Below are positions 1-63,999 of a DNA stretch of 64,000 bases, in pieces. A program made the position numbers and the translations under genes. This DNA comes from Phoronis australis (Eukaryota > Animalia > Phoronida). Each line of letters starts with the position of its first letter. Positions within the stretch are counted from its first letter, which is position 1. Under the pieces are notes generated by a model. It had not been told where the DNA came from. It was given only the letters and a program-made list of their open reading frames with translations, and searched no databases. The stretch spans positions 1,010,564 to 1,074,563 of the forward strand of contig NMRA01000012.1 of the NCBI GenBank assembly GCA_002633005.1, given 5' to 3'.

Positions 1-3000
1 ACCCATTGGTTTTTCAGTCCTTTGACTGGAAGGCATGGATGTAGTGAGAGAGAAAAATTGTTTTATTTTGTTTTGTCTAGAATCTTATTACCAAAGCATA
101 AAGTGGCAGCAAACTCGCCTTCCACCACAAAAGACAATTTTTGATTTAGACCAGTTACCAAGGAGAAATTGGACTCAAATTGTTCCTTCGTCAAAATATA
201 TGTGATTTCTGAGCATGGAATGATCTAGCTGTACGTTATTGCTTGAGGCCATGTGTCGCGAATTCGCGATGCGTGTTGCATCTCATGGGAATTAGGTTTG
301 AAAGAAAAATATAAAAAGACGCAATTATTCTGTGTTATGTTGTAAGTTCACAACACCAGGCTATACAACCTCAGGCTTGTCACGGTGGGTCATTTTATGT
401 GCTGAGCAGGGGCTCAGGGAATAACAAAACTGTCAGTTGTTTGGAAACCGGAAATCATATCTCATTAAAATAACGAACCATTTGACACCTGTTTTATTAA
501 TCAAAAGCTGACTTCAGTTGGATGGAACGTGGGTTTATAGCCGCTAAAATGCCACAAACGAAGTAAAAAAATTGTTGGCACTGCAATCAAAATCTTAATA
601 TTGTTATGTTTTTGTTTAAATCAATGGTTTTAATATTCTTAGATATTTTTTTGATTTATAACTATGATATTTTATGGATTCCCTCTTCTTGTCAAGATAA
701 AATATGAGACTACCATTCATTGTATGTTCCAGGATGTAGAATGCATTTAGCGCCTTGTTTATTACAGCACATTCTATGTCTGCCTGCTCATCTTATATCT
801 AGCCATGCTGTGGTGGCGTTCTTTGACAAATGGGATTCTGACATCTCACTAGGACAAGGCAACCCTGCGACTGATCACCCTCGGTGGTAAGCGACGGCAA
901 TGCAAAATTAACTGTATTCAATCTTCCAATGCCAGCAAAGTTTTACTGCTGTGCTGTTGGCTACAACTTGGAGAGCTGGAAGTTGGATAAACTTGAGGAG
1001 TATCCATGGATACGGTATTTTCAGACATGATTTCTCGAATCAGTGCAACATTTGTAAAACGATGCCAATGTAACAACAAATTCTCCTGCCTTAAGGAAAA
1101 TGGAGATTTTCATCAGTGTCCATTGTATAACTGGAATTTAGCTGGCTTTATTTCTGACAGTTGACACTCTCTTGGTTTCAACATGGATTGTTAACTGGGA
1201 TGCAAGAGCACTGTAAGTGACCATTACCATTCTGTACTTTCTAACTCCAGGAGGTCAAGTGGCGATCATCATTCTCATAGGAGTCCACGACTGTTGAGAA
1301 AAGCTCACAAAGTACTAGGAATAACAAAGAACGATAATAAAGAGACAAAAAAGAATCTTAAAATGCCCCACGCTGTTGGAGATTATGTCCATGAAGGGTA
1401 GGTTTTATGTGATCATTGGAAGGTAGCTGGTTTTGACCCAGTCTGTCGATAATTGTTATAATATATAATGTTCCACAACATTACTCTATCAGTTGTTGTA
1501 GTATATAATGCACCACAGCTCTGTTAGTTGTTGCAGTATATAATGTACCACAGCTCTGTCAGTTTGTTCATGAGGTATTGAGATCAATCTGATAAGGGGT
1601 GGTGTACACCAGTCAAGTTGCCCCCCCCCCNNNNNNNNNNNNNNNNNNNNNNNNNNNNNNNNNNNNNNNNNNNNNNNNNNNNNNNNNNNNNNNNNNNNNN
1701 NNNNNNNNNNNNNNNNNNNNNNNNNNNNNNNNNNNNNNNNNNNNNNNNNNNNNNNNNNNNNNNNNNNNNNNNNNNNNNNNNNNNNNNNNNNNNNNNNNNN
1801 NNNNNNNNNNNNNNNNNNNNNNNNNNNNNNNNNNNNNNNNNNNNNNNNNNNNNNNNNNNNNNNNNNNNNNNNNNNNNNNNNNNNNNNNNNNNNNNNNNNN
1901 NNNNNNNNNNNNNNNNNNNNNNNNNNNNNNNNNNNNNNNNNNNNNNNNNNNNNNNNNNNNNNNNNNNNNNNNNNNNNNNNNNNNNNNNNNNNNNNNNNNN
2001 NNNNNNNNNNNNNNNNNNNNNNNNNNNNNNNNNNNNNNNNNNNNNNNNNNNNNNNNNNNNNNNNNNNNNNNNNNNNNNNNNNNNNNNNNNNNNNNNNNNN
2101 NNNNNNNNNNNNNNNNNNNNNNNNNNNNNNNNNNNNNNNNNNNNNNNNNNNNNNNNNNNNNNNNNNNNNNNNNNNNNNNNNNNNNNNNNNNNNNNNNNNN
2201 NNNNNNNNNNNNNNNNNNNNNNNNNNNNNNNNNNNNNNNNNNNNNNNNNNNNNNNNNNNNNNNNNNNNNNNNNNNNNNNNNNNNNNNNNNNNNNNNNNNN
2301 NNNNNNNNNNNNNNNNNNNNNNNNNNNNNNNNNNNNNNNNNNNNNNNNNNNNNNNNNNNNNNNNNNNNNNNNNNNNNNNNNNNNNNNNNNNNNNNNNNNN
2401 NNNNNNNNNNNNNNNNNNNNNNNNNNNNNNNNNNNNNNNNNNNNNNNNNNNNNNNNNNNNNNNNNNNNNNNNNNNNNNNNNNNNNNNNNNNNNNNNNNNN
2501 NNNNNNNNNNNNNNNNNNNNNNNNNNNNNNNNNCAGACCGCGGCAAACTAAGACAATTTTCTGGTATAGAGTCAAAAATTTGCTGACCCATTGGTTTTTC
2601 AGTCCTTTGACTGGAAGGCATGGATGTAGTGACAGAAAAAAAATGTTTTATTTTGTTTTGTCTAGAATCTTATTACCAAAGCATAAAGTGGCAGCAAACC
2701 CGCCTTCCACCACAAAAGACAATTTTTGATTTAGACCAGTTACCAAGGAGAAATTGGACTCAAATTTTTCCTTCGTCAAAATATATGTGATTTCTGAGCA
2801 TGGAATGAACTAGCTGTACGTTATTGCTTGAGGCCAGGTGTCACGAATTCGAGATGCGTGTTGCATCTCATGTGAATTAGGTTTGAAAGAAAAATATAAA
2901 AAGACGCAATTATTCTGTGTTATGTTGAAAGTTCACAACACCAGGCTATACAACCTCAGGCTTGTCACGGTGGGTCATTTTATGTGCTGAGCAGGGGCTC

Positions 3001-4214
3001 AGGGAATAACAAAACTGTCAGTTGTTTGGCAACCGGAAATCATTTCTCATTAAAATAACGAACCATTTGACACCTGTTTTATTAATCAAAAGCTGACTTC
3101 CGTTGGATGGAACGTGGGTTTATAGCCACTAAAATGCCACAAACGAAGTAAAAAAATTGTTGGCACTGCAATCAAAATCTTAATATTGTTATGTTTTTGT
3201 TTAAATCATTGGTTTTAATATTCTTAGATACTTTTTGATTTATAACTATGATATTTTATGGATTCCCTCTTCTTGTCAAGACAAAATATGAGACTACCTT
3301 TCATTGTATGTTCCAGGATGTAGAATGCATTTAGCACCTTGTTTATTACAGCACATTCTATGTCTGCCTGCTCATCTTATATCCAGCCATGCTGTGGTGG
3401 CGTTCTTTGACAAATGGGATTCTGACATCTCACTAGGACAAGGCAACCCTGCGACTGATCACCCTCGGTGGTAAGCGACGGCAATGCAAAATTAACTGTA
3501 TTCAATCTTCCAATGCCAGCAAAATTTTACTGCTGTGCTGTTGGCTACAACTTGGAGAGCTGGAAGTTGGATAAACTTGAGGAGTATCCATGGATACGGT
3601 ATTTTCAGACATGATTTCTCGAATCAGTGCAACATTTGTAAAACGATGCCAGTGTAACAACAAATTCTCCTGCCTTAAGGAAAATGGAGATTTTCATCAG
3701 TGTCCATTGTATAACTGGAATGTAGCTGGCTTTATTTCTGACAGTTGACACTCTTTTGGTTTCAACATGGATTGTTAACTGGGATGCAAGAGCACTGTAA
3801 GTGACCATTACCATTCTGTACTTTCTAACTCCAGGAGGTCAAGTGGCAATCATCATTCTCATAGGAGTCCACGACTGTTGAGAAAAGCTCACAAAGTACT
3901 AGGAATAACAAAGAACGATAATAAAGAGACAAAAAAGAATCTTAAAATGCCCCACGCTGTTGGAGATGATGTCCATGAAGGGTAGGTTTTATGTGATCAG
4001 TGGACGGTAGCTGGTTTTGACCCAGTCCGTCGATAATTGTTGTAATATATAATGTTCCACAACATTACTCTATCAGTTGTTGTAGTATATAATGCACCAC
4101 AGCTCTGTTAGTTGTTGCAGTATATAATGTACCACAGCTCTGTAAGTTTGTTCATGAGGTATTGAGATCAATCTGATAAGGGGTGGTGTACACCAGTCAA
4201 GTTGCCCCCCCCCC
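1..4214. repeat. Near-identical direct duplication (1-1630 vs 2586-4214) flanking an N-gap
   Basis: Both copies start ACCCATTGGTTTTTCAG and end GTCAAGTTG(C)n; only scattered SNPs and 1-bp indels; N-run 1631-2533 between them. Confidence 0.93.
803..1397 (+). CDS. Duplicate copy of the first two in-window exons of the scaffold gene (803-886, 1281-1397)
   Basis: Same exons as 3387-3470 and 3865-3981 with intact AG/GT sites; one amino-acid difference seen (GDYVHE vs GDDVHE). Likely an alternate haplotype. Confidence 0.55.
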
Positions 4215-7200
4215 TCAGTTGTGTTATTTATGTAGGTTACGCAATAGAGGTTGGGACTTGGGGCATATCAATGAAAGAACAGCAGTTGAAATGGGGTTAT
4301 TTCTCGTTTCTTGTGCTGTAGTCAAACAATTTTTGCCACTTGAAGCAATAAAACAGTTCAATTTTCAATAATGATGGATTTAGTTTTTATAGTCCACAGT
4401 GTCTAAAATGATCAGGAAGGAAAGAATGTTGCCACAAACAGACAGTGGTCATCACTGACACACATCTCTGATCCCTAATCCTGGGCAATTACCTTGTCAA
4501 CCAGGACCATAAACTCTTTGTTAAGCTGTGTTTACTAACCCAGTCCAACTGGAACAGTTGTATGACTAAGAGCAGGGCTTAAAAAGAACTACATTCACTG
4601 GTCTTGCATGTCAATTTCAAAATTCCTGTTGTGTGTGAAGGACACCCATGTACAATGATCCACAAAATTCTAAGCCATTGTGTGGGCTACTTACCTTCTC
4701 CAAATTCAAAATGTCTTTAACATTTGTTAAGTTGTGTTGGTGGTTACAGTCATTTTCAAGCCAATCCACATAGTCAAGTGGATGCAGGAGCCATTCCTAA
4801 CTTTGTGTATTCTACCTTCAGTGAAGAGGGCTTTCTCACTGCAACTTCACCACACTGTCTGTAAAATGTTTAATGTAGCATTCCAAGTATTGCACGGTCA
4901 CACTTGACTTACCTCAAAATCCAACTGCTGCCTGGTGTTTTGGTAATTGGCCCAATTATGTTGCACATCCAGCTGAATTAGACAGGAAAATAATATGGTA
5001 ACTGTACACTGTCGTTTTAGGTTGTAAAACTCACTTTTTTGTCGATTTTCAAAATTCAAAACCTAATCGAGCGTACTTTTCACAAACTATTTAAATATGC
5101 TATTTAAAAACTTTCAGTGTGTGTATGCTGGAAATATTATGGGTCTGATTATCTAGAGAACAAAACCTTCAGCAGCCTGAGACTATGTAGTAACTACAAC
5201 AGCATAGGTATCTTTGATAAATGCCGGCAGATTTCAAGGTATGCCAACCGGTCAAGTTGCCCAATCTCGACCGGTGAAGGTGTCAACATAGGATTCTTAA
5301 ATTTATGAAAGCGAGAATCATTGTGATTTTTTATTACCTATTCCTAGTTGTTCTTTAAAGTTTGTTGAACCCATTTGTTAGCCCATTGGTTTAATGCTGT
5401 AGTGAGTCAGACTATCTTCATTTGCTGCTCATTTTGCAAGATAATTATCATTACTAAAAGTTCAGCCGTAGACATTGTCACAGACCTATAGTAGAAATGA
5501 CATACCCTCCTTTGCCCACACTTTATATATGCCCATTTCACCATGCACTAAGCATGCTCTAGGTACTGCTGTTAAAGCCTGCATTCAAATGTGCCCTCGT
5601 TATTTCAGAGTCAACAATGGCCATCGACCTTTGTCCAGAGAAAATGACACCTCTCACGAAGATAAGCTACAGAGAGACAGCGATGTACCTATTTATGTAG
5701 ACAGCTCGACTTTAAACTCAAACCATGAAGGCGAAAAACAGAGCAGGACTAGTGACTGTCCAGTTTATCTTGACTGTGCTGAATTGAGTGTGAGTTCTAA
5801 GGATGAACTAGTGGTCAAGAATTCCGGTGATACTCCCGTTTGTGTCGATAGTGTTCCATTGAATGTAAATAGTTCTCCTCCTGCGAGTCGGCGAGAGGGT
5901 GACGATGACTCTGACAGTGAAATGCCGCGTTACGCAGCTATCTCTACTTTCAGCAGCAGAAAGAGTAATGAAGTCGACCTAGTTGAAGGGGCCACAGTGC
6001 ATGTCCTGGAAAAGAACATTTCGGGTTTGTTCAGACACAATGTATTTTATGTTAATTAAACGTCTGAAACTGGTCAGAAAAAATGGAAGTTTTCACTGCT
6101 GTTATGTGAAAAGAGCTTTTTTCTAGTGAGTCATTGGTTTATATTTCAAACTATTGATTTGCAGCCTCTCAGTGATAAAAAATTTTCATTCAATTTAGAA
6201 TTAGGTTGACAGCCCCTAATTTCTAAGCAAATTATACTTTACTGTGTGCAAAGTTAAGGATGTTTAACCTAATATTTTGTGAAGAGAGGATTAAGGATTT
6301 GGTTAAACTGGATTGATCTGCATTCCTTTATTACTCACTACCTTCAGTCTCAACTGGTGCAATTCTGGTGAAACAGCAGTGACTATTGGTCGTGTATGTG
6401 AATCTCAGGGCATCACACAGTTGACTCATCGCCATCATTGTAGGTTGGTGGTTCGTGTCAGTTGAAGGCAGTGATACCCAGGGTTGGGCTCCCGGGGCGT
6501 TCCTTGAACCTGCGTCTGTGACTGAGGAAGAAGATGAAGACAAAGATGAGCTTAGTAAGTTGATTTTTATCAAGGGTCTAACAGTCACTCGCATTTTGAG
6601 TACCAGTTTTCTCCCCTGAATAGTAGACATCAAACTGGTTCTCAAAATCTGAGGGCTCTGTAAGTGACTATTGCTGGGGTCTATTTCATCAAAGTGACTT
6701 CAGACTTAAAGGCGAAGGCAACCTTTTTGCACGTCATTTTTAGAAAAAATAAGGTTCGTTGATTATCCCAGACATATTTTTCACTTATTTACTGCTTTTC
6801 GTAATTTAATTAATCACTCGTCATCTACTCTGGAAGTGACGTTTTGGGAGGCAAGAATTTCGCGCCATTTTCTTTTCATATAGTCTGACTGTGAGAGCAG
6901 TCGAGTCAGTCATTGTTCTACCTCGGTTGTGATAAGTTCGGTCGTCGTTTGCTTTTGCTTACAAGTCAGTCAACATGCCACGCTGTTGCTGCGTACTGGG
7001 GTGTACTCATTATCGTCTCACGTACAGAGGAAGAACTGTCCCACTTGCCCGAGTGTCCTGCGACACACTCCCACTGGAGGGTGATCTGAGCACCCAAACT
7101 GCTTACATCCCACCATGTGACTCCCGTGCCACACACCTGGCACCTTCCAAATAGCTCCAATACAAGTCCACAATAAACTTATCAAACTTAAGCTCACCGA

Positions 7201-10200
7201 TCTGTTCATTGGATGACGAACTATCCTCTTCACTGGGTGTCGAACTGGGCCTGTATTCACTCCCACTACTCAACATCGCTGCAGGGCTGCTTACAGGCTC
7301 TGAGCTAGAGACAACAGCACGGGGAATCACTGCTAGTTCCCGGAATTGCATGCAATGGGGTACGTTCGGAGGCACGCGGAACAGTAGATGAAGTGCCTCC
7401 AGTCACTGTATATAGTGGCCACAGCTCGCGAGGCTTCTCGCTTCAAAAACGCACTTCTCGGGGTTGGCGATGGGCACTGCCAGGAATCAACAGCGACGGT
7501 ATCATCGTATGGTACCCTTCTTCAGGCGTTGTTTCGCAGGGACCTTCATCAATTCAGCGTACCTATCTGTCATAATCTGATGGCAGAAAATGCTTGCCAC
7601 ACACTCGGTAACCCTCCATTGCTTTGTACGTTGTGTGGACGGTTAGTGCTGCGTTCTTCACATGAATGAGCTAGCCAAGTACGGCGAAGTGTGTCATCCT
7701 TCGGAAAGCGACGCAAGGTACCCAAAGCGCGTGTGAGACAATAATGAGTACATCCCGGTACGCAGCAACAGTGTGGCACGTTGACTGACTTGTAAACAAA
7801 AGCAAACGATGACCGAACTTATCACAAACGAGGTAGAACAATGACTGACTCGACAGCTCTCACAGTCAGACTATAATGAAAAAAATTGGTGCGAAATTCT
7901 TGCCTCCCAAAACGTCACTTCTGGAGTAGAGGATGAGAAATTAATCAAACTACGAAAAGCTATGTGAAAAATGTGTATGGGATAATCAACGAACCTTATT
8001 TTTGCTAAAAGTGACATAAAAAAGGTTGCCTTCGCCTTTAAGACGGAAGTTTGGTCTTGTGCTTCAACTTCGCAATTTGCGAAATAGTCATGAATGCATC
8101 TCAGTCTAAAAAGTAAAGTATCAGAAATTTTCTCAATAACTTGCAGGTATGTGTTTATTCTAAGACAAATTGCATTTTTGCTCAAAAGAAATTTAATTGT
8201 TTTACAGAAATAGTTGTGTAGTGCATAAGGCCACATTTCTGACTGAAGTCGTTTTTCATGAAACAGGTCCGTGGGTCGTTCGTAATTGATTGAGCCTACA
8301 AAGTTATACTTTTTCTAGAGCTTCCTAGATGGATGAGCCAAGAAAATTTCAACTTATGTCGGGCTTCCTTGCTGACACAGCCAGGAATGTTAGAAATTTG
8401 TAACTTATTTATGGTTTTTTAGGTGGATGAGCTAAGGAAGTTGTTCTTTATCTAGGGTTTTATAAATGGAAGCTGTGTCTAATCTAGGGCTTCAAAGATG
8501 ATTGAACTAAGGAAATTTTAGTTAAATTTTTGTGGGGTTTCGTTGTTAGATGAGCCAGGAAAGCTGTACTTTGATTAAGGGTTTCATTGATGGGTGAGCC
8601 AAGGAAACTGTACCTTTATCTAGAGCTTTATAAGTGTGTGAGCAAAGAAAGTTGTGTTTAATCTGGGGCTTCATAAAATGACTTAGTCAAGAAAGTTGTA
8701 CCTTGTTTATGGTTTTCAGATGGATGAGTTGTACTGTTAAGTCTTCATAGATAGCAAGGTTATGTATTGTGTACTTCATCTAAGGTCTGTTTTATAAAAA
8801 GTGACCTTAAATGACTTAAGACATATATTTGGCTTCCTGGCAAGACTTAAAAAGGTTTGCAACATATTTACCACACCATATTGAGGTTGACAATCATGTT
8901 TATGTAGTACATATATTTGGTCGTAGGCTTGCACTTCACAATTAAAAAACAAGTGTTTAGTCATAATTATTGGAACATCACTGCTTGGAAATAATTGTAC
9001 AAATTATTATCTCACATACTTTATTTTGTGCTAAAGTGATTTTAATTATTTTTCTAAAATAGTTATTTGGAGTTTAAGACCAAATTAAGTCTTACGTTAC
9101 TCCTCATGAAACAAATGCCCGGGACATCATGGATGAATGAGCTCACGACTGTGTTCCGTAGATGCAAAACATTTACGAATAAAGCTAGACATGTGATCAT
9201 GTGCTTTCGCTTGTAATTCTTGACCATATCTGGCAAAGACTTGTGTTTTATTGCGTTTTCGTAAGTCTTGTGCGTTTACGAAATGCAGTTCTAGACAATT
9301 TTCTACAGCTGTACTTTTGTTACAGTCGGCCACTGCAAGGCAGTTTGTGACTACACAGCACAGAGTTCAGACGAAGTGTCGCTGAAGTGTGGAGAATCTG
9401 TCGACGTGTTGTCCACTAGCTTGGATGGGTGGTGGAGAGTCAGGTAGGGTCACACGTAGGTAGGGTCACACGCAGGTAGGGTCACACGCAGGTAGGGTCA
9501 CACACAGGTAGGGACACACGCAGGTAGGGTCACACGCAGGTAGGGTCACACGCAGGTAATGTACATCCAGTGCGTGGACTAATTTTGGGACTTAACGTAG
9601 CATTATTCATCCAAAAAATCGCAACTAGAACACTCACTCTAACAAATTCAATCTCGTGATTTTCCTTTGCATGATAAGATTTTATTGGTTCAGGAAATCA
9701 TAGAGCAATCCAAAGTTTTTACTTCTGAATTCAAATGGATTAAGCTTTGGACTGCGTATTGTACCTAAAAGTGAAACTGTTCCTCAGTTATCTTTCAATG
9801 ACTTCACAGTTCGCCTGTGTGATTGGTGTATAAGCCAAATGATGTCACCGAGAACCAATGAGATGTCTTAGCCAGTTGAACCAGCAGAGCCGGCGAAGCC
9901 GATCAAGTGCTGGCATTTTCAACTGAATGTTTGGAAACACTGCTGTCACAACAACCAAATGTTTAAGTTCAGTTTGATTATTGGGTTAATTAGCATTAAG
10001 ATGTCATGATTAAGCTGTCTGTGGAATGTAACTGTAGCTTTAATCTTTTTGTATTCTAATTCAACTGTCATGTTCTCCAGTGCAAGAATATTGACGTTTG
10101 CTGGCAACAGATGTCTCTGGTCACTGAGGTGAAACATGTCGTGTTATTGTAGATGTTGTGGAGAAGTTGGGTTCAGCCCGGTGGCATGTCTAAGTGAGCT

Positions 10201-13200
10201 CGATTTTCAGCAGCTGGAAAAAGGCAAGTTCATTCGGGAGGCAATCCGCAACAACTCAATATACAGAAAAGCACCACCTCCGAGACGGTAAGTGACTATA
10301 AACAGCAATTTGAAAATTTAACTGAATCTTGAACCGTAGGGATGTAGTTTCCACTTATCAAAAAAGTTTCAATGCATGCAAAATCTATGGAAAACAAAAA
10401 AGCCTAAATACCAGAGTGAAAACTCTTGGAAAATTCATAAGATCACAGACTATAGTACATGGACCACCTACTCTGTCTATTCTCACTGCACAAGATCTGT
10501 ATGTTGCACACAAACTGTGTCCTTAATGATTAGTGGCACCAACCAATGAAGTTAGTCAGTTTTACTTTTGTCATGTATGTCTGGTTTTGTTTGTTGTTGC
10601 TGCTTGGACTTTGCATTTGCTCGTCCTGAACTATTGCCAATTAAATTACAGCACCGTGATTTCTGCTAAAGGTATGCCGAAATGTTATCTTTCGTACTAC
10701 TAGGCAGTAAAACAGGAACCAGACTTTCTCATTGGAATATAATTACTGGAAGATGAGATTAGAACACGAAGCAAGTGGCGCCTCCACTGGCAATTTGCTG
10801 TTTATGATCTATGATAAGATGAACCTTCATTTTGTGACTTCTATCATAAGTTCATGTATTCAAGTATTCTATGCAACACCCACTAACGAATAAATGTATA
10901 CATTATTTGATTGGGAACTATATTAAATGTATAGTGAGTGCCGTTTCACATTAGCGAAAACTGCGATCCTTGCAAAAAATCAAGTCGTCTTGTTTTTTAT
11001 GATTTTATCATGGTCAGAATGGAGCTCTTAACAAACCACTTCATTCTTATTTTAACTTTGAAGTTGGCCATTTTTGACTGGCCGTTATAAGTTCAAGTAC
11101 TTCACCTGTGACGGACATTATTCGTCCAAGTTCCAAAAGTTTTAACATGACATGCTCCGCTGCGTTCTTTGTGGGTATTAAGATCACTGTGATGAGCGCT
11201 GGTGTACACCAGTCAAGTCATTCCACTGTGTTGCTTTGGCAGGCAACACAATAGTTGCTGGGACATTATCAACGAAAGAACATCAGTTGCAGTGCACATT
11301 ATTTATTTCTCTTTTCTTCTGCTAGTTAACCAATTTGTGCCATTCAAAAAATGATTATTAGTTTTTATCGTCAGTGTCTAAAATGGCGGAAACAAATGTT
11401 GCTGCGAACAGGCAAGGGTTAACACTTACACTCATCTCTCCCCTCTTTAATCCCCAAACAAAAAAGCCGGTCATAAAAGTCCAGACTCTGTGGTAAGTGC
11501 ATACTGTAATCCCAACCAGTGAGCAGTCACAGTTACCGGTAGGGAAATGCGATGTAACATGTCTCATCTACTGAAATCATCCTTCTCCTTTGTTTTCTCA
11601 TCCAGTCTGAGTGCAGTATCCAAACCAGTGCCCCAGTTTGATTCATCAGACAGCAGTAGTGATGACAATGTGACGCCTCACCAACCGGCAAAGTCCACTG
11701 TTCAGTACACTCAAGTGGTGTTTGATGATGATGACAAAGTGGTTATAGAAGATGATGTGTCCCGTCTATATGCCAAGTATGTCTTGTTTGTCTTTGTATT
11801 CACCTGTTTAGAGTGCACAGTAAAATCTCACCAATATCAGATAAAAAGAATTGCTAAAATTACCCTTTTATCATTTTTCAACGTCTACTTACACTGTTGT
11901 GAGTGCCCAGAAGTTTTCAACAAAATTTTGTGTGATGGTAGGTGTCGTACAGAAATTGAACATGGTAAAGCATTAAAGTCGTGCCATCTTTCTTATATAA
12001 AAAAGAGAAAAAATTTCAGGTGTGGACCATATTATGTCCTAAATTGGTGAGGTTTTACCGTAGAATGTGTTTCACCGTTAAGACCATAATAATATAGGAC
12101 CCAAAAACAGCATAATTGTTTTGGTTATCGCCCATCTCATTTTGAAAGCTGCATCTCAAAGTTGGCATCAAGTGTCTCTAGGTAAAAAAGAGAAAAACCC
12201 AACGCATTTCAGCTGGCATCTGGTGATGCTGGGGGTGCAGTTGAATGGAAGTTTCCAATCCACTTCACCTAGCACCTGGTGATGCTAGGGCTAAAGAGGA
12301 ATGGAGAGTTCAAATCCATTTGACGTAGCATCTGGTGATGCTGGAAAAAAGATTTCTACCCATTTCAGCTGCCATCAGATGACTCTTTTTTTAGAAAAAC
12401 AATGGAGAATAAAAAATATCGCATCACTACATTAATTTTAAAAAATACCTGGACCAAAACTATTTGTACTATTTTTTGCCTAACAGGACATTTCATATAA
12501 AGTGCTCATCAAGATAATTAGACAAAAATACTCATGTTAAAAGTTATGGTCATTTATGCTAACCAGTAAACTTAAGATTAAAGTATTAAATTATGTTTAT
12601 TTTTGAAAAAGTTTTTTGTGATGTTGAAAAGGCATGATCATGGAATAAGATTTGACACGATTGTTTTTTTTAACTATTATGGTGGCTGTACAAAACTGTT
12701 TTGTCCTAAACATGGATTGTAGAGTGAAGAAACCTGAGAAACAAAAGCGAAAACTTCGTAGAAAGGATTCACCTGTGCTTTATGCAGAAATTGACCAACT
12801 GAGTCTTGTCAAGAAGGAGAGTACTGTAAAGAGTAACGGTGCGCCGCGTGACATGTCGAGTAAAAACACCTATGTCAACTGTTTCCCAAATAACAAGTAC
12901 GTCAACGTCATCTTGAAGGACACTGACAGTGTGCAGGTATGTGTAAAATGGTTGTAATTGACATATAGAAATATGCTAATGTGTCTTATGTCTCTATGAG
13001 GCTATTTCCAGCTTCATTATCTTACTGAAAAATTGGTGTTAACAGCCAAGCACCAATTTTGTATTTAAGATATGCTTCAGGTTATCAAGAAGTGTTATTT
13101 AAATTCAGGTTACCAAGAAGTATTATTTAAATTCAGGTTACCAAGCAGTGATACTTACATTCAGGTTACCAAGCAGTGTTATTTAATTCAGGTTACCAAG

Positions 13201-16200
13201 CAGTGTTATATACATTCAGGTTACCAAGCAGTGTTATTTAATTCAGGTTACCAAGCAGTGATATGTACATTCAGGTTACCATGCAGTGTTATTTAATTCA
13301 GGTTACCAAGCAGTGTTATATACATTCAGGTTACCAAGCAGTGTAATTTAAGTTGGCATTGGCATTTTTGCTTCAAAGCACTAACTTATGATTTTTGACC
13401 AGTGGTCTTTCGTTCTATACTCAAATTAGAAGTTATTTCTTGGATTAAGAAGAACCAGCAATTGATTGACAGGCTTGTCATTTTATGCACGGAAATATAG
13501 TATGGCTGGAACTAGGCTGGTTCTGTGACTGCATGTTAGATGGAGCTTCTAGTTGTTTGTTTGAGACTAAAAGTGATTTTGATGGGTTTCCTTTTGATAA
13601 TTAATTTTTGCACATGTGGTGCCACATAGAAGAACCCAAATGATATGGTTTTCAGTAATGACTCTGCGTGAAATTTTGAGATTTTGGCACAAAAATCACC
13701 ATCATCAGAGCCATCATGTCAGTGAAGTAATGTGTTGGATAATGTATTTATTGCAGGGGAAAGATAAACTGTATCAAGTCACCGAAGCCTATGATGGAAC
13801 AAGTAGTCATGTGGATGGGCTTTGTGTTAAAGCAGGAGATGTTGTCAAGGTAATGTTTGGTGGTGTTTGGTGTTTTTTACTAATAAAAAGAATTGCCAAC
13901 TAATCTTTGGGCTGTTTTTCATTTCAAATTGTGGCTACTTTTCATCAAATATTCATATTTTGTGTTACTAGTGATCTGCACCTGGGCTAGATGTCATAAA
14001 ACTTCAAAAGTTATCCGCTGGATAAATCTGATTGTTCTGAGATGTCACGTACATTGTTCAACAACTGGTGAGTGAAAATGCGACATCATCATTGCTATCC
14101 AGCGTACAACTTTTGTGCAACCAGGACTAGGACTTCAGTACAACCATGCTACAGTGAAGTTGTGTAGTTATTCTTGATTTTTGATTTTGTTTCAAAACAA
14201 AGTATAATACATTAATCTTGTGCCTTTAATACTGAAGAACTATTGTATCTTGTGTATGGGCTGTGTGTGTTTACGTTTGTCGTTGTCTTAGGTTGAGAAA
14301 CATGATGGAGCGATGAGCTACTGTGTACATTGTCAAAAGAACAAGTCTAGTCCAGCTAAAGGATGGGTGCCACAGACAATACTTACTAAATATAATACAG
14401 GTAAGTGTTCATCTACATCATCATTTCCTGATGAAGCCACGCAATTGTATCGAGGACGGGTGTGCCTCCACTTTGGTCAGAATCGTACTGATGCCAATTG
14501 CTGTGATTTGAGGTTATATTTTAATCAATGTCAGTGAATAGATAATTACACTTCAGACGAATATACTATGTTTATTTTAAAGAGGAGGACATGAATGATA
14601 CCAGTTTTACAAAGTCAGACAAGCGAGGATTAGAGGGCTCTCATTTCAACACAGCGACATCTAGTGGAGTGGTGCATTACCAATCCCAATGCGATAAAAT
14701 CTAACTAGTTCCAGACAAAGCTAATTGACCTATTACAAGCTCCGCTTCTTGCGAAAAGTCGACAAACAAACAAGTTTTACCCAGCAACGTGTTGTTTGTC
14801 GGGTAAAATGGTGGCTTTGAAACAAAGATGTGTAAAAACTGATGCGTTCTGATTGGTCAGTTAAGTCGTCACTCAAAATCCTGGCGATAGGTCAATTGTC
14901 AAACTTGCACTTCTGACTTTGTTGTATTTGCCTATAGTTTTTCCAATTTTTTCAGGTGGTTGTTTTGGTGCAGATGCACAGATTTGATATAACACTATCT
15001 CGTATAAATAAACAAGCAAATGAAATTTCACTTTTCTTACCTATTTCGTCCTAAATTGGTGGTACTGTAACCATTTTTCAGTGGTCAGAAATAGGCCCTT
15101 ATCAATCTAACACTCTAAAAGTTCAGCATGAAAGTTACAGAAATAATGACCCCTAGTGGCAGCAGGTAGGAACTAGTCCCAAAAACTCCTCAGCCTCACA
15201 TTCGTGGTGAAAACTGCCAGGTGCGTGAGGTGAATATGTTTGCTGCATGACATGGTAACGATTACTCTCTTTTTACAAGCCATTATTTTTGAGAAAATAA
15301 TTTCCCTTGAAAAAGAACTCTGTTTTGTAAGAAGAGAAAACTGTTTGTGGGGAACATCTGTGCGGTTCTTGACTCTGATGACATCAAAAACATTATTCGT
15401 CCAATGTAAAACTTGCGTGCAATATAGTTCTGTTATATGTTTACATCGCAACAACACATCTGGTTTCCTGTTCCCTTGGTGATGTGATTGTAAGAATAAC
15501 CTGTAGCAACATTTGGGTCTTGTGACCTTGGTGACCTTTTGCAGATTCCCCACCAGCAACATCCAGTTCTGATATGCCAACAGAACAGTCAATGTGCCAA
15601 GACAATAGCTTACTTACTACATCGACCAATCAGTTGCGCCGTTCATCATGTGACCCTCCATTGGCTCCAATAGCACTCTCTCCACGTCTGCACCAGAGGG
15701 AAGTAGCAATAAAGGTAAATGCTGTTCCAGTCAAAGTTGTCGCACATTCTGGCTTATCTGGCTCACCATTTTGGACAAAAGTGCTCCATTTTATTTCTGT
15801 GAGCTTTTGTCGTCGTTAAAAATGGCTTTGCCTAAATTGTTTCAAAATATTGTCTGGTGGTTGTCTTCGAAAATGGTAAAGCATTAATTTGGTGCTACTT
15901 ATCTTTAATAAAAAATAACATTTGACTTATTTACCTTGTTGGTTAGATTTTGTCTAATTCACTCCAACAGCACTTATCTGCACATCAGTCATTTTAGTCC
16001 TTAATCAGTGGGATAACAGCACTTGGATAGACTTCACTGCCTTGAACAAACGTAACGTTTTGTTCACTTCATAGCATTGACAGACTTACTTACAAGTAAT
16101 TCTCTGATATAACACCCAGTCAAGTTTCACTGGCAGATTTTTTACATTCTCTGTCGTTGTAATTAGGTAATACATGAAGTTTGCATGCTTGTGGTGTGAC

Positions 16201-19200
16201 TGTGTGTCAATCCGATTATTACACATAACAAGTATTTAGGTGTTACGTCGTTGCAGCTGAGTTTTTGTTTCTGTATAAAATGTTTATCATGTTCAATAAA
16301 TAGTAAAAAAATTCTCTTGCTTCTGATGGAAACCACACACCGTGCTTTAGTCCTCTGTTTCATGACATCATGTGTCCACAGGAAGAGACCACTGACACCG
16401 TGCACATTGTGGCTAAATGTGGTTATAATGGTGACGTTCCTGGCACGCTAGCCTTCGGCCCCGGAGACTCCGGTCTCCTACTGGACATCAACCCCCTGGG
16501 CTGGTGGCTGGTCAATTTAAAGGGTCTCGAGGGCTGGGTGCCAGGGGAATATTGGAATGAGATGGAGGTAAACTTGTCTGTTATCCATGCATGAGTACTG
16601 GACATGGCGCCACTGTGCCCAGACTGCTTGTTTCTAATACTCTCCTAGTGGCTCAAGCTGTGTTCATTAAACCTTGTTGCTCTTGTGATCTGTTTACAGT
16701 TCCTTGATTGAAAGTCCTTCGTATGCATGCACGAACTATAGTAGAATCTCTGCTTGTCAGTTATCTTTTTTCAATTTGCTTATTAAATTGAAGACTGATT
16801 GAGTAAATATTTGCTTTATTGTTGCATGATATTGGATTTTTTGTTTCCTTGGGGTTTATGAACCTAGTTAGGGGGTCTAAGAGTCATAGTTCTTTAAAAT
16901 GAAACGGGCTTTTATTATTCATTAGTTGGGTCCTTAAATTATGTAACTAGGAATTGGGCTGTACAACGTGACCGTCCTAACCTGGAACCGTTGCAAATTA
17001 AAGGCTGGGTGCATGTACAGCAATTATGATTCAAAATTAGTCCAAAATTCTCCAGTCCCGTTTCTCCCCTTCATCACCAGCGTAATGCGCCCTGTTCTCT
17101 TTAATTAAAGACTGTTTCCATGGTGTTATTGTTGGACCCTCACTAGCTGTTCTCCACTTCAATGGTAACCAAGACCGGTGGTAGCCATTTTCTGATATAG
17201 CGGCAACATAAAAAATATACTTTGTCACTAGATGGCGGTACAATAACTGGTGGACAGCGTTTAGCGTTCTTGAATGGGCATTTAAAACAGTGGGATTTCC
17301 ATGCATTTTTTATGATTTTTGTGACCATCATGCCATTAAATTATCACTTATGGACGGTAGGGTATTTAAAGGGTTCACACATTAGTGTCTGACATCTTAA
17401 ATTGTCTGTGAACACAGAAAGCAACTGTTTTCTCCTTGCTAATTCTGTTCATATTGCACACCAGAAAGTGAAATTGAATCAAGAAGTCACATTCGTGTTG
17501 TCCCAATATTAAAGAGTTGCATGCTGAAAGTTTAGAATTGCCTAGAGCTGCCTCCTGTTCTGTGCTATGTATTCTTTGTTAAAGAGGCTATGAACCTGCG
17601 GTCTCGTCAAAAACTGAACTTTTGATTTAGACCACTTACTCCTGTAAAATTGATCTTGACATGTTCCTTACTTGGAGCTAGAATTGGTTTCCAGTCTTGA
17701 AAATAGATGACCAACCATTGTTGGTGACCATGCTTGGCACATAAAGTGACATTACCGTAATACATCAACTTGTAGAGTCTTGTCTCAAGCTGTAACAAAC
17801 TAGGAGTCCTCTCTAAACCCTGAAACCACCTCTAATTTGACTGAGCATTTGAGACTAATTTCGTACCAGTAGGTGGTCTCAATCAAATTTTTTTAGAAAT
17901 GGAAGACTGGCTTAGAGCACTTTTACTGTATGTCTTGTTGTGCATGGTACTAACCTAAACAGGAAGTGAATAGTGGAAACCAATTACTGGTAACAACTCC
18001 TGTTTGGGATTTTGAAAATTTTTCCTTAAACTGCAATGTACCTTCATGAATAGAAAGATTGCAGTGACATTGTAGATATTCTAGAAATTTTACTCAAACT
18101 TGAAAGCCTCCATTAAGAGCAAAGCACGAAGTGTCTTATGTCTTCTGTTTTAAGTCTGTCACTTAAATAGCTTTACAGTATACAATCTAAAATGCATGAA
18201 TTTTAAGACTTCGTTTCTAGTCTGTCTAGTAGAACTTTAACTTAGCTTAATTTGGTCAATACATACATGCTTTTTCATAGGTTTTCTGTGTTTAGATTCA
18301 TCTGGTCTTGGGTAGTATTAGTCGTTAAAGTACCAATGACTACTGTTTGACCAACTATGTAGATATAGGCGGCTTTCTTGCAAGTGGCTTCTTGTCACAT
18401 TTATTTATTTTTATACGTAAACAATCATTAATGTGTGTATTTGTGTTTAGGAATGAATTAATAAATTATCTGTCTCTTTGTCTATCAGCGACCAAAAGCT
18501 AAAGTGGATAAGGATAAAGAGCCTTCAAAGTTAGAAGATGTCACCAGCCAGCCATGGTACTTTGGGGATATTTGCCGGCTGGAGTGCGAGTCATTGCTAC
18601 TGCAACAGAATGAGAACACTGCTTATCTAGTGAGAGAAAGTAGGAATAGGGTGAGTGAAGGTGGTGCTGTTATGGTTATTTGACAGTTTTGTGAAGCTTT
18701 GTTGTTTACTATAAACTTTAAGGTTGAGAATTTTGAGATGTGTTTCGCAAAAATTATAATTGTTTACTGGACTTACTTGTAATTTTCCCATGGCAAGCTA
18801 CTATTTGTCGATCACTGTCGACTTTTTCAAGCTTATGTGACACCTGGTGGTGGGTGTCACTCTTGAGGAAAGCGGTGGAAAACTTCTGCGACACCCATCA
18901 TCAGGTATCACAGAGGCTTGAAAGAGTCTGCAGTTACCAATGAATTGTTGCTTGCATTTCTCGAGCAAGTCCAGTAAATAATCATGATTTTTCGGACTCC
19001 TATTTCAATGCCAAAGAGTGATAACCTCCATCAATATAATATAATAAGTTAATGATGGTTTAACAAGAAGACTATGGATGCCCTATTTCAGACGCGTATG
19101 CACAAAAGTAAGAACTTGGATTGTTAACTTACCCTTCGTCATAACTTGAATTATAATGAAAGTGGAACATACCTGATGTGTCACAATAATAACAATTGTG

Positions 19201-20155
19201 CACTCTGTCTCGCATAACATGCCATTTACAGTGTATTTCACTGGTGAACATGCCATTTACAGTGTATTTCACTGGTGAACATGCCATTTACAGTGTATTT
19301 CACTGGTGAACCTGTCATTTCAATTACTGATTTTCTGATTGCTGACAATGATGAGAACAGGCTTTCTAGTTTCAGCAAATATACACTTTCATTGACAAGA
19401 GTTAAAACCTGTAGTTTTTAGATATTTGGCTAAATTCGCCGACTTTTCTGTAAGGCTCTACATATCCATAATTGACCTGTTCATCAGCATACATGATGTC
19501 GAGTACAAGGAGCACTCAATACACCAGAATGACATGAAAACCTGACGTCATTTGGTATTCTTCCTAAAGAAATAGTGTTTGGAATGTTACATCAACTCTG
19601 TCAACTTGTGGTTAAACTCATTTGAACTTTAAACTTTAACAGTTGTCTTTGTTTTGTAGCATTTCAACATTATCAGTAACGTAGAAAATGAATCCGAAAC
19701 TAAAAGAGGCGATCCAGATCCCCTAAAGGATACACTTGTTTGTCGAAAAGTACAATTATTTACGTAACATTATCAGTAACCTCTAGTTATGGATATAATA
19801 CTGTACACATTTGCTTGCATGTTTTTTATTATTCCTTTGATTCGTGTACGGCTCAGATAATAACATTAAATTGCACGAGACTCGTATTGTTTTTGACATT
19901 CTGTTTGCTCCACTGTTCATTTGTGCTTTTGTTTGCCTTCAGGTTGGTGATTTCACGCTCTCTGTTGCTTACGAGAACAGAGTGAGACATTTTCCAATCC
20001 GAACCACGGAATCGGGCAAGTTTTTCATCGGCAATCATCACTACGGCAGTCTTACTGAAGTTGTACAGTATTATCAGACACACACTCTTTTCCACAGTGA
20101 ATCAGGAAGTGCCGTCATGCTCGGACAACCTGTCAGAAAACAGAAGGGGGCTTAG
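3387..20155 (+). CDS. Multi-exon PX(C-term)-SH3x4-SH2 adaptor/scaffold, SH3PXD2 (Tks4/5)/p47phox-like with C-terminal Nck-like SH2; 5' end lies upstream of window
   Basis: Phase-consistent GT-AG exons: 3387-3470, 3865-3981, 5609-6024, 6444-6554, 9326-9443, 10153-10287, 11606-11776, 12723-12936, 13757-13849, 14292-14400, 15545-15714, 16382-16567, 18489-18650, 19943-20155 (TAG); about 765 codons without internal stop. SH3-1 YAAISTFSSRKSNEVDLVEGATVHVLEKNIS|GWWFVSVEGSDTQGWAPGAFL; SH3-2 CKAVCDYTAQSSDEVSLKCGESVDVLSTSLDGWWRVR|CCGEVGFSP; SH3-3 YQVTEAYDG..VKAGDVVK|VEK..GWVPQTIL; SH3-4 LAFGPGD..GWWLVNLKGLEGWVPGEY; SH2 PWYFGDICRLECESLL..YLVRES|VGDFTLSV..VRHFPI..LTEVVQYY. First exon HAVVAFFDKWDSD resembles the last helix of PX domains (weaker evidence; the first two exons are less certain than the rest). 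Confidence 0.88.
6710..8037. mobile_element. Non-autonomous THAP-containing Kolobok-like DNA transposon with about 310-bp terminal inverted repeats
   Basis: TTAA at 6706-6709 and 8038-8041; termini AGGCGAAGGCAACC / GGTTGCCTTCGCCT; inverted arms about 6710-7022 and 7732-8037; internal degraded minus-strand transposase fragments. Confidence 0.85.
7023..7779 (-). pseudogene. Degraded N-terminal part of a THAP-domain transposase
   Basis: 7570-7779 PHCCCVPGCTH..RRFPKDDTLRRTWL is the THAP signature (CxxxxC, FP, W); frameshifted downstream pieces DKFIVD.. / ELFGRCQVCG..GAQITLQWECVAGHSGKWDS form a Cys/His zinc-binding block; start codon mutated to GTG; no DDE core present. Confidence 0.75.
8295..8755. 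repeat. Degenerate minisatellite (about 40-45 bp unit)
   Basis: Recurring TTATCTAGGGCTTC..GATGGATGAGCCAAGGAAAGTTGTAC variants. Confidence 0.65.
8784..9122. mobile_element. Second diverged copy of the same MITE family
   Basis: Starts GGTCTGTTTTATAAAAAGTGAC..GACTTAAGAC; shares TTTGGTC-TGCTT-ACTTC-CAATT and ends TCATGAAACA with 8042-8270. Confidence 0.55.
9441..9561 (+). repeat. 16-bp minisatellite overlapping a splice donor
   Basis: 7 x CAGGTAGGGTCACACG (few variants) followed by CAGGTAATG; the first unit spans the exon end at 9443. Confidence 0.95.
12203..12382. repeat. Degenerate about 55-bp tandem repeat, 3-4 copies
   Basis: Recurring CATTTCA(G/C)CT(A/G)GCA(T/C)CTGGTGATGCT. Confidence 0.6.
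13076..13350. repeat. 26-28 bp minisatellite, about 10 copies
   Basis: TTCAGGTTACCAAGCAGTGTTATTTAA alternating with ..GTGATA(C/T)TTACA variants. Confidence 0.92.
18753..18990. mobile_element. Degenerate palindromic MITE-like element
   Basis: Arms TTGTTTACTGGACTT..TTCAAGC..TGTGACACCTGGTGGTGGGTGTC versus GACACCCATCATCAGGTATCACA..GCTTGAAA..AAGTCCAGTAAATAA. Confidence 0.7.
19217..19311. repeat. About 30-bp perfect tandem repeat x3
   Basis: AACATGCCATTTACAGTGTATTTCACTGGTG three times. Confidence 0.9.
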
Positions 20156-22756
20156 GTCATAAGGAAATTCAAATTAGTGAATGTAGTATGAAGTAGTATA
20201 AGAATTTATTCACAAAAACACCTCCCACTACAGAAAGTGTTGTGCACTTTCTCTGGCCAGTTTCATTGCCACTTTGAAGTAAAAATCCTAAGTTGAAAAA
20301 TATCTTCATTCTTATACCCGTGTATACACTGGCTGAAACCCTAGTGTTTTTCTATCATTTTTGCTTGCAGCAAAATCCCAGTGATGTGAACAGTTGCTGA
20401 GGTCACGTTCTGTAGATCTGTGCTGACAGTTTGAATTAACTCAATGCTACTTACATTTTTGCCGATGCTTTTGTAACTATACTCACTTCAAAGAACACAC
20501 ACGTGCATCAAAAGGTTCTTTTGTTAACCATTTTGTCTATGGCAACAAGTGAACTGGCTTAAACATGAACTCCTCCTATGAATGCAATCTGCGAGGTGGG
20601 AAACAATCTACATTGAAAAATCTCCAGATTGAGACAGAATAAAATTAGTTATTTTTGCTCAAGCTAGGAGCTCGTACTAAATTTTAGAAATAATAGTCAA
20701 TATTGGCTTCCAAATTATGAGAAAGACAGCAAAACTCCTCGCTCTATGGTTTCAGCTACACATGATACAAATTTGGGGTTGTAGCGAAAGAATGTACGAC
20801 AGGTAAACAAACAACCATTCACCTCGACATTACACTGGATACGCATGAAAACGTGTTGGCAAATATTTTTGAAGATTTTATGAACTGCCAAGTCTATTTT
20901 GTGACTTTGTTGATACAAAACGCAGTGACCAATATTTGAGAAGTATGACGAATGCCTGAATTGCTCTACTTTCAATCCTCAGAATCAAGAAAATTTAATT
21001 CCTGTCTGCATTTCGCTGTCCAACTTTAAAGACTGTTCAAATTGAAGAATTTTTACCATAACTTTGTGCCTTAACATCACCCTATCTATGTAAAATGTTT
21101 GTGTTTTCGCCACTGTAGAATTGCCAACGTTTTCACCACTGATGTGAACCTAGTATTATAGGCATTGCATTTTCATGGTGGGCTGTTGCCATAAAGTGTG
21201 CTTGATATATTTCAGTCAAGTGTGGGGAGAGAGTCACTTTTAAAATAAAGGTGCTGTACGTTTTCTTCAAATCGTTCTTGTAAATATTAGTTGTTACATC
21301 ATGCGTGCAATTTATATTCAGAGTAAGAGAAAAACATTACTGCAATGACTTACGGAGGTTTGGCACAGTTTTGATTTGTTTTTGAAATTTTTATAAGTTT
21401 ACATATTTTGTATTTTTGTCTGCCTGTTACTGATGTACAAAAAACATGTGATCAGCAAATAAGTTTTTTGTTGCAGTCACCGAAATAAAAGTACCACTGG
21501 CAAAATGGGATATTTACATGGGTTACTGAAAGGACACCTCAAGTGATTTAAGTCCCTTTGAAAATGAAATACTTTTGTTGTGCAATTTCAATTTCTTGCT
21601 GTAACAGCTTTAACTGTAATTTTGAGCTGTTTTACCCCTAAAAGTGTCTCAAGAAAGCATGTAAATTTCAAGGCCACTATTGCCCTGCTCAATTTTGGAT
21701 TACATTATTTGTTGGTGTGAATGAACCATAAGGGGAGTGTCTTCTTTGCCTTTTTATCACAAATTTAATTAATATTGTCCACACTTGTATTTAGCGTGTT
21801 CTCATAGTTCATACAAGATCATCACACTGTTATTAAATGCTTTACTAACAAAAGTAATAACTTTTAAATAACTAATATGTTATTGGAAATCCAAAATATA
21901 TTCAAATGTTTTATAAATAAGTTAACAAGTACTACTTCATGGTAAGCTGTGCCGAACCCCCTTAAACAATTTTTCAAATTTGGTCTCTTCAATTTGAACC
22001 CACATTGTTTCTAACTGCTAAATGTATGTACCAGTTGCAATAACAATGTGGATCCTGTTGCACACTGCTTGTATAATGAGAAAATCTCTTTTGTCACAGT
22101 TAATTGATATTTTTTGATATTAAAATATCTCAGTACTCATTGTTTTGTCCTGTCTAGATTATAGTTCTACTTATGTAAATTTTATATTTTCAAGGTACTC
22201 ATATAGACAAGTAAACCTTACTTTAATTTGTTATTTTGTATTATCATTTTGTTGTATTGTATACCTGATTTCTTTCTGGTTTCCCTTGAAGATATCATAC
22301 CTTCAGAAATAAGTTGGTGATTAGACATAGATAAGAATATTTTGAACATTTTAGGGCACCTTGTATGTCTGAATCTTGTCGGTAGGACTGCTTGTAAAAT
22401 TCATCCAGTCTTTAACAGATTTCACTGTGTGAATGGTCATTTAGCTGGTAAGTGTTATTTGGTACTTTTCTGTACAGCATACAAAATTTAAGGGTTAGAT
22501 TTATTTTGGAAAAGTACAGATATAGTCCTACTATCTTAAAATTCCGATTTCATTTACAAATGTTACTCATTGTGTTTAGTTATTGTTAATCGTGTTTTGC
22601 TAGAGATTATCAATGCATTAAGAATTGTTTATAAATGGCATTCCTATTTGTTATAAACTGTAATTTGAACCTATTACCTTGAATACATGAAATAAACCTA
22701 TTTATACCACAATATTAGCGTCAAATGGCAGATACAATAACCGTTTTGGCGGGTAA

Positions 22757-27800: not shown

Positions 27801-28039
27801 TCGTGATGCGATTGCATATGTATGTACTCGTTGTTCAACATAATTTTTTTTCTTTCTCGCCCCTCAGTTTTGGAAATAGGTGCTTCGCAGCGCATTTCAG
27901 TATTAGAAACACCAAATTTCAACGTAAACTGAGTGGACTATTTACAGGGTTCACGTCGTCACCATTTTGTTAATGCAGTTAATTTTAATTTTATTAGGTA
28001 AGAGAAAATACGTCATCTCAGCAGTCTCCAACAGTTAGT

Positions 28040-50858: not shown

Positions 50859-63999
<13,141 letters not shown>

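Follow-up and report, generated by a model that had tools for sequence, protein, structure and literature searches.

The scaffold proteins Tks4 and Tks5 (SH3PXD2B and SH3PXD2A) and the p47phox-like orthologues of invertebrates share a PX domain, a tandem pair of SH3 domains and a PPPRR core, and in Tks4 and Tks5 further Tks-type SH3 domains are set in long disordered linkers with tyrosine sites. In Tks4 the PPPRR core binds the tandem SH3 pair, and Pro-to-Gly changes abolish binding (PMC8348221); in p47phox residues P299-S304 are essential (PMC2121648). The standard account (PMC2121648) is that early animals had one p47phox-like organiser, and the available portion of its main text does not contain the term 'SH2'. 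Here we describe a gene, found in a 64,000-nucleotide stretch of Phoronis australis DNA (contig NMRA01000012.1, positions 1,010,564 to 1,074,563; the window), that encodes the same design followed by a terminal SH2 domain. The SH2-bearing proteins to which it belongs are an old invertebrate sister family, a paralogue of p47phox/Tks4/Tks5, and are neither Tks4/5 orthologues nor Nck. In its members the PX, tandem SH3 pair and PPPRR core are followed by one or two additional SH3 domains and then by the SH2.

The family departs from Tks4 and Tks5 by its terminal SH2, a shorter PX in which the two lipid-binding arginines are never both kept, an altered SH3-2 and a degenerate SH3-3; its core follows SH3-2 directly and is preceded by a tyrosine. 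With p47phox (NCF1) and NOXO1 it shares the tandem SH3 pair with equivalents of W193 and W263, the autoinhibitory core and a phase-1 intron in the G192 codon, but it has extra SH3 domains and the SH2, Leu takes the place of S303 and the PKC consensus R/K-x-S/T-x-R/K is not complete. No proline-rich tail like the one with which p47phox binds p67phox was seen in the SH2-bearing family. Nck1 and Nck2 carry a C-terminal SH2, the nearest neighbour of the family SH2 in profile search and tree, but Nck consists of three Nck-type SH3 domains without PX, whereas the SH3 domains of the family, including the one adjoining the SH2, are Tks-type.

Gene structure and transcripts

The window carries a genuine transcribed and spliced animal gene on the + strand. 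An earlier note, made from the sequence alone, had read here a continuous, phase-consistent frame with four SH3 domains and a terminal SH2, and this observation is confirmed: the chain comprises 14 exons (3352-20155), all introns are GT..AG, the phases agree and the only stop is terminal. RNA evidence came from a single study, three raw runs of which were read to about 18-19% each, and reads were placed at 98% likeness on 3300-20300 for joint counts. All 13 predicted joints were seen, with 7-27 reads each and the first mate always on the - strand; these short reads cover the joints one by one, with no end-to-end molecule from PX to SH2. Among them are the joints on which the earlier note had made its reading depend, 3981>5609 (11 reads) and 16567>18489>19943 (7 reads for 16567>18489 and 20 for 18650>19943). 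The joint from SH3-4 to SH2 is thus present in RNA, and the SH2 exons are not a separate gene. The proposed exon 1 start at 3387 has to be moved to 3352, where five reads of run X3 pass into a loose end before 3349; the in-window product is 787 amino acids (aa) from the corrected start and 775 from 3387. The exons and the untranslated region are as follows.

3352..3470, + strand: exon 1, C-terminal end of PX (aa 1-25 of 787) and start of linker; family PX profile E 5e-4, read overhang, joint 3470>3835 in 9 reads
3835..3981, + strand: exon 2, linker; flanking joints in 9 and 11 reads
5609..6024, + strand: exon 3, long polar linker and first half of SH3-1 (SH3-1 is aa 191-249), ending inside the Gly codon equivalent to p47phox G192; reads, profile, NCF1 intron at the same place
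6444..6554, + strand: exon 4, second half of SH3-1 (W193, P206 and F209 equivalents kept) and acidic linker between the SH3 domains; reads, alignment
9326..9443, + strand: exon 5, first part of SH3-2 (whole SH3-2 is aa 267-318); Pfam SH3_1 E 1.2e-9, best PDB match p47phox
10153..10287, + strand: exon 6, last part of SH3-2, with Cys at the Y279 position, then a conserved Tyr (10256-10270) and the beginning of the PPPRR core, which spans 10265-11612 from exon 6 into exon 7; profile, alignment
11606..11776, + strand: exon 7, end of the autoinhibitory core and first ITIM-like tyrosine motif (11700-11717; ITIM, immunoreceptor tyrosine-based inhibition motif); reads, motif scan
12723..12936, + strand: exon 8, linker holding another ITIM-like motif, the second (12775-12792), and, at 12871-12909, two YxN motifs; reads, motif scan
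13757..13849, + strand: exon 9, first part of the degenerate SH3-3 (whole SH3-3 is aa 479-543); family SH3-3 profile 31.1 bits, joint in 14 reads
14292..14400, + strand: exon 10, second part of SH3-3; reads, family SH3-3 profile
15545..15714, + strand: exon 11, polar linker, its donor joining exon 12 (15714>16382, 12 reads) or exon 13 (15714>18489, 12 reads)
16382..16567, + strand: exon 12, whole SH3-4, Tks-type, a partly skipped cassette exon; Pfam SH3_1 E 6e-6
18489..18650, + strand: exon 13, first half of SH2 with the alphaA and betaB arginines; Pfam SH2 E 8e-7, joints in 7+12 and 20 reads
19943..20155, + strand: exon 14, second half of SH2 and stop codon; Pfam SH2 E 5e-8
20156..22500 at least (the end of the mapped stretch), + strand: 3' untranslated region; sense read depth 6-12

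Downstream of the stop codon AATAAA occurs at 20638, 21244, 21484 and 22691. Exon 12 is skipped in frame in 12 reads, as against 12 reads for its entry and 7 for its exit, and an isoform without SH3-4 therefore exists. Intron 12 (16568-18488) shows sense coverage (depth about 1-3.5 at 16908-17474) and contains several ATTAAA hexamers, and read-through into it meets a stop after 9 codons. An SH2-less form is thus possible, either as an isoform of its own or as retained intron 12.

Domains, relatives and origin of the SH2 domain

Searched singly with Pfam, exons 5 and 12 match SH3, and exons 13 and 14 match SH2. A profile built from Tks rows of the usual, SH2-less kind (hereafter canonical) detects SH3-1, SH3-2 and SH3-4 at 60.7, 48.4 and 24.6 bits but does not detect SH3-3 in the whole window product. 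A profile made from the third SH3 of six relatives finds SH3-3, which is without the binding tryptophan, in the whole product (31.1 bits), and the cut-out stretch scores 36.4 bits vs a best of 6.0 among 500 shuffles. Pfam matches to MH2, RHEX and Myelin-PO on linker exons lay below the cut-offs and were rejected as compositional. The closest solved relative of exon 5 in a PDB search is p47phox, and exon 6 gave no match among PDB chains. Together with the phase-1 Gly intron before WW, which matches NCF1 c.574, the exon 5 match bears out the identification of SH3-1 and SH3-2 as the p47phox/Tks tandem pair.

The PX domain lies mostly upstream. A PX profile from 8 relatives, the window protein excluded, puts exon 1, together with its assembly copy, at the top of the 2924 six-frame window peptides (E 5e-4). 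Furthermore, the loose end that the five X3 reads carry at 3349/3352 reads KKKKIIEDFCQ in frame, which corresponds to the family PX helix; this sequence is not in the window, and the upstream PX exon is therefore outside it. Since only the last ~25 PX residues are inside the window, we infer the whole PX from the tail, the read overhang and the orthologues, nine relatives having it entire. The earlier note's expectation of a PX is upheld in this way.

We searched the last SH2 exon (19943..20155) against 1.84 billion representatives and obtained 88 matches, of which 57 were Pfam-scanned, the other 31 being fragments of 59-136 aa. PX, SH3 and SH2 occur in a single chain in nine of the 57 scanned matches. 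Five are named, namely Sycon ciliatum XP_065197110.1, Nematostella vectensis XP_048582607.1, Capitella teleta ELT99001.1, Lineus longissimus XP_064619339.1 and Hydra vulgaris XP_047141564.1 (its PX, at 21.2 bits, slightly below the Pfam cut-off), and four are further records. Because sponge, cnidarian, annelid and ribbon worm all have the design, it marks an old sister family of p47phox/Tks. Owenia, Ridgeia, Paralvinella and Clytia have partial members, and the window product aligns best with Capitella (30% over 639 columns) and Owenia. Long models of Anneissia and Diadema (P0033/P0102, P0050/P0118) combine linker tyrosine motifs and SH2 with neither PX nor SH3, and are either split models or cases of genuine loss. 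No vertebrate or ecdysozoan member stands among the named matches, which do not amount to a genome-by-genome search. Two word-index searches, a weak tool that gives no evidence of absence, returned 15 candidates without a relative for the SH2 exon and 15 proteins with one family member for the family alignment. The ESM Atlas, which covers clusters of at least 50 only, gave no PX+SH3+SH2 cluster, all feature scores being <0.9.

Some matches deserve mention for their shape. P0084, P0015 and P0024 have a PX or PX-like start, one SH3 and SH2 without a tandem pair, and look like a shorter family variant. Many short matches (P0001-P0087), judged from protein ends only, appear to be single exons called on DNA. 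A set of fragments that includes the Nck-like P0046 begins where the last exon of the window gene begins, and a cnidarian-like set begins ~12 residues later.

With the canonical Anneissia protein as query 331 proteins passed, among them separate canonical genes of Sycon and Nematostella, and SH2 was found in none of the 120 canonical matches listed. Sycon, Nematostella and Anneissia thus carry a canonical paralogue as well (P0134, P0136, P0112). The Nematostella p47phox-like protein of Kawahara and Lambeth, as given in file S8 of PMC2121648, begins like the canonical gene and not like the SH2-bearing one.

The relation of the two kinds was examined in an unrooted tree of PX and tandem SH3 (27 rows over 247 columns, five of the 23 canonical rows having been removed as close relatives). 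It holds only family rows with PX and tandem SH3, has no p47phox, NOXO1, Tks4 or outgroup, and includes the window protein with 141 columns only and an unusual composition. The 9 SH2-bearing and 18 canonical rows fall on opposite sides of a 98/98 branch. Uniting the two Nematostella paralogues is rejected (p 2e-54), whereas uniting the two Sycon paralogues is not (p 0.08). The separation in Nematostella dates the duplication to the cnidarian-bilaterian ancestor at the latest, and it is probably older. The position across the 98/98 branch, the terminal SH2 and the canonical copy in the same species all speak against orthology to SH3PXD2A/B.

These results also bear on whether the chain could be a gene-model artefact or a recent lineage-specific fusion of neighbouring genes. 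Short reads without a single molecule from PX to SH2, the SH2-less form that intron 12 allows and the echinoderm models with SH2 and no PX or SH3 would fit such a view. It is nevertheless largely refuted, and we give it hardly any credence: every one of the 13 joints is in the reads, the domain order is repeated by annotated proteins from four phyla as well as by four transcript-sized records, and the Nematostella paralogues resist being united.

The SH2 itself was compared in a tree of 52 rows (97 columns), chosen from 93 near-complete domains among the matches, in which DAPP1, SLP-76, Crk, Vav and others are absent. The family SH2s form one group (90/65) beside two Nck-like rows (93/92). Likewise, a profile of 10 family SH2s has Nck1 as its top single-SH2 PDB chain among the best 60 rows (83.4 bits). 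A grouping of the family with the Grb2 SH2 is not rejected, however (approximately unbiased test, p 0.27), and single SH2 sequences place SHP2 or Grb2 above Nck. The family SH2 is thus probably Nck-related, and the likeness to Nck that the earlier note saw stands as nearest affinity, with Grb2 as sister still compatible with the data. The phosphotyrosine-pocket arginines are invariant in 10 of 10 aligned family SH2s and present in the window protein.

A profile of the family SH3-4 scores canonical Tks SH3 domains at up to 53.6 bits and the three SH3 domains of one Nck-architecture protein at 27.8, 33.5 and 3.8 bits, the last being the one that adjoins the Nck SH2. As the SH3 beside the SH2 is Tks-type, it appears that only the SH2 was gained and that Nck's effector SH3 domains were not acquired. 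In the simplest history suggested by these comparisons, a Tks gene was duplicated and one copy acquired, in a single event, a terminal SH2 that is probably related to that of Nck.

The earlier note had suggested a possible 'Rosetta-stone' fusion of a phosphoinositide-binding NOX/podosome organiser with a phosphotyrosine reader. Taken as a fusion of Tks5 and Nck, the protein would build podosome- or invadopodium-like actin structures via N-WASP. Vertebrate Tks5 does bind Nck, Grb2 and N-WASP (PMC7663256), the family SH2 groups with SH2s of Nck architecture in tree and profile alike, and the Nck-like genomic fragment P0046 seems to have the same exon boundary before 'GDF'. We nevertheless consider this account unlikely. 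The third SH3 of the Nck-architecture protein barely answers to the family SH3-4, which is Tks-type, and it is by its SH3 domains that Nck binds N-WASP; moreover, Grb2 remains an acceptable sister of the SH2, and single sequences favour SHP2 or Grb2. A one-off fusion is also at odds with an architecture found as an old family in at least four phyla. What endures of that interpretation is the single PX/SH3x4/SH2 gene, the tandem pair, a likely Nck-related SH2 and the absence of a named gene from our searches.

A putative tyrosine-controlled scaffold

The residues that matter for the p47phox groove were compared with the numbering of the human row in file S8 of PMC2121648. Equivalents of G192/W193/P206 and of G262/W263/P276 are kept in all nine family rows, and a PPPRR-type core directly follows SH3-2 in all nine members with tandem SH3 (aa 345-349 in the window product). 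A tyrosine stands 3-8 residues upstream of the core in 8/9 family rows vs 1/16 canonical rows, seven further canonical rows having no core called. Of the PX residues for phosphoinositide binding, the R43 and R90 equivalents are both Arg in 0/8 family vs 18/18 canonical rows, while R42 is kept in 8/8 family rows. Linker tyrosines were scanned with the established ITIM and YxN consensus patterns, with 300 shuffles per protein. In 16 family proteins 33 ITIM matches were found vs 18.3 expected, and 30 YxN matches vs 15.6; in 23 canonical proteins the figures were 14 vs 25.7 and 18 vs 22.1. A narrow motif, Y[ATS][ETQS][IV] (25 vs 2.1 expected), carries no weight as evidence, having been derived from the family sequences themselves.

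We modelled the Capitella protein with AlphaFold on a 36-row alignment. The model contains PX, four SH3 domains and SH2, and its confidence (predicted local distance difference test) is ~68 over the core vs ~40 in the linker that follows. The predicted tandem SH3 matches p47phox bound to p22phox (7yxw) with a template modelling score of 0.86 and a root-mean-square deviation of 2.7.

We propose, with a probability of roughly 0.5, that a family member is an autoinhibited membrane scaffold that is recruited and activated by tyrosine kinases. In the resting state the PPPRR core would fold back into the groove of SH3-1 and SH3-2, as measured for Tks4 and p47phox. The SH2 would bind an activated receptor or adaptor at a phosphotyrosine, and may thereby take over targeting from a PX with decayed lipid-binding arginines. 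A Src-type or receptor kinase would then phosphorylate the pre-core Tyr and the linker tyrosines and free the groove, after which the ITIM-like pair and the YxN motifs may recruit SH2 proteins of SHP2 and Grb2 type. The groove and SH3-4 would bind proline-rich partners, such as p22phox, WASP or dynamin types, and skipping of SH3-4 would be expected to alter this set of partners.

Such a scaffold would resemble, by analogy and with no claim of sequence kinship, the docking proteins Gab/DOS, FRS2 and Dof, in which a membrane-targeting domain is combined with tyrosine motifs for SHP2 and Grb2 (for FRS2 see PMC7260276). The family differs from them in a targeting through PX and SH2 and in an SH3 groove with an autoinhibitory core.

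Several observations weigh against the proposed switch. A phosphomimic beside the core of Tks4 did not release the core (PMC8348221), so that a nearby phosphate need not open the groove. The Fisher p of 7e-5 for the pre-core Tyr is overstated, since the range of 3-8 residues was chosen after seeing the sequences and since the rows are related to one another. In Lineus and in the window protein the PX site is basic (K/R, the K of the window protein coming from the read overhang), and lipid binding may therefore survive in that branch. The Y279 equivalent of SH3-2 is aromatic in 1/9 family vs 18/18 canonical rows, and the groove may thus bind other ligands or bind less well. The enrichment of ITIM and YxN is only about two-fold, and 2 of the 16 family proteins have no ITIM match. 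Finally, the likeness of the Capitella model to p47phox may echo the structures on which AlphaFold was trained.

The same tyrosines allow that the SH2 binds the protein's own phosphotyrosines as a latch or oligomer, so that phosphorylation, rather than bringing the scaffold to a receptor, would close or cluster it. An SH2 and conserved tyrosine motifs share one chain with long polar linkers between them, and it is exactly these two elements that the echinoderm models without PX and SH3 retain. The Nck SH2 reads the motif YDxV (PMC3507883), but no conserved YDxV is among the motifs listed for the family, and we hold self-binding to be quite improbable.

A further alternative is a dedicated second organiser of a Nox2-type NADPH oxidase, in which the tandem SH3 would bind the p22phox tail and the SH2 would couple the oxidase to phosphorylated immune or growth-factor receptors. 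The residues on the W193 side that p22phox binding needs are kept, and the predicted Capitella structure matches the p47phox-p22phox complex. Furthermore, cnidarians and lophotrochozoans possess Nox2, p22phox and p47phox-like genes, which were not found in ecdysozoans (PMC2121648), and the named family members likewise include no ecdysozoan. Against this, Sycon, Nematostella and Anneissia already hold a conserved canonical paralogue, the SH3-2 groove and the PX are altered, and in the partly predicted Capitella p22phox gene a genome screen did not detect the proline-rich region (PMC5372347). A role as second oxidase organiser therefore appears rather doubtful, and the tyrosine-controlled scaffold is the account we prefer.

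Genomic surroundings and place in animal history

The beginning of the gene is assembled twice. A ~98% identical copy of ~2586-4214, with the first two exons copied, occupies 1..1630 on the + strand (blastn 97.98% over 1630 bases) and is separated from it by an N run of 903 bases (1631-2533). The duplicate most likely represents two haplotypes assembled in tandem and not a real exon duplication.

High-copy repeats lie in introns at 6600-8050 and 14770-14900; around 6584-7911 read depth exceeds 100 on both strands (90% likeness), and related inverted ends near 6720-6970 and 7740-8040 resemble a small DNA transposon. Intronic tandem arrays are found at 9441-9558, 13076-13351 and 19216-19320, with units of 16, 28/55 and 31 bases, respectively. 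Two other genes share the window:

27998-44603, + strand: spliced gene for an SLC6 sodium:neurotransmitter symporter; Pfam SNF on 7 open frames, the first exon presumably resembling a monoamine transporter
51281-58500, - strand: gene for an NSUN2-type RNA methyltransferase; PUA, pre-PUA and RsmB/F matches

The human genes SLC6A3 and NSUN2 both lie on 5p15, and the neighbourhood may thus be an old linkage.

In agreement with the earlier note, we found no named gene for the PX-SH3-SH2 architecture. A literature search whose scope excludes most subscription journals and the main 21-species SH2 survey (doi 10.1126/scisignal.2002105) yielded no description of such a protein, and none occurs in the available portions of PMC7663256, PMC8348221, PMC4342544, PMC5372347, PMC9524095, PMC7260276, PMC3507883, PMC3204972 and PMC12418599. 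The family is thus likely to be so far unnamed, though its architecture is visible in public annotations, and databases mislabel the Hydra and Nematostella genes as SH3PXD2A/B or as 'uncharacterized'.

An SH2-bearing paralogue that dates back at least to the cnidarian-bilaterian split revises the history of a single organiser. It also provides a candidate direct link from tyrosine kinases to reactive oxygen species (ROS) or matrix invasion in Hydra, Nematostella and annelids, animals in which wound, regeneration and immune ROS are studied. Tentatively, and as a conjecture that we think has a minor share of the odds, the last common ancestor of animals may have had two p47phox/Tks organisers. 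The SH2-bearing one would have come to be targeted through phosphotyrosine instead of lipid and controlled by a tyrosine switch instead of serine, wiring receptor or Src kinases directly to oxidase or actin assembly; it would have persisted in sponges, cnidarians, spiralians and, truncated, echinoderms, and have been lost toward vertebrates, flies and nematodes. If true, two ancestral organisers and subsequent losses would explain why the family is unnamed and why vertebrate Tks5 borrows Nck and Grb2.

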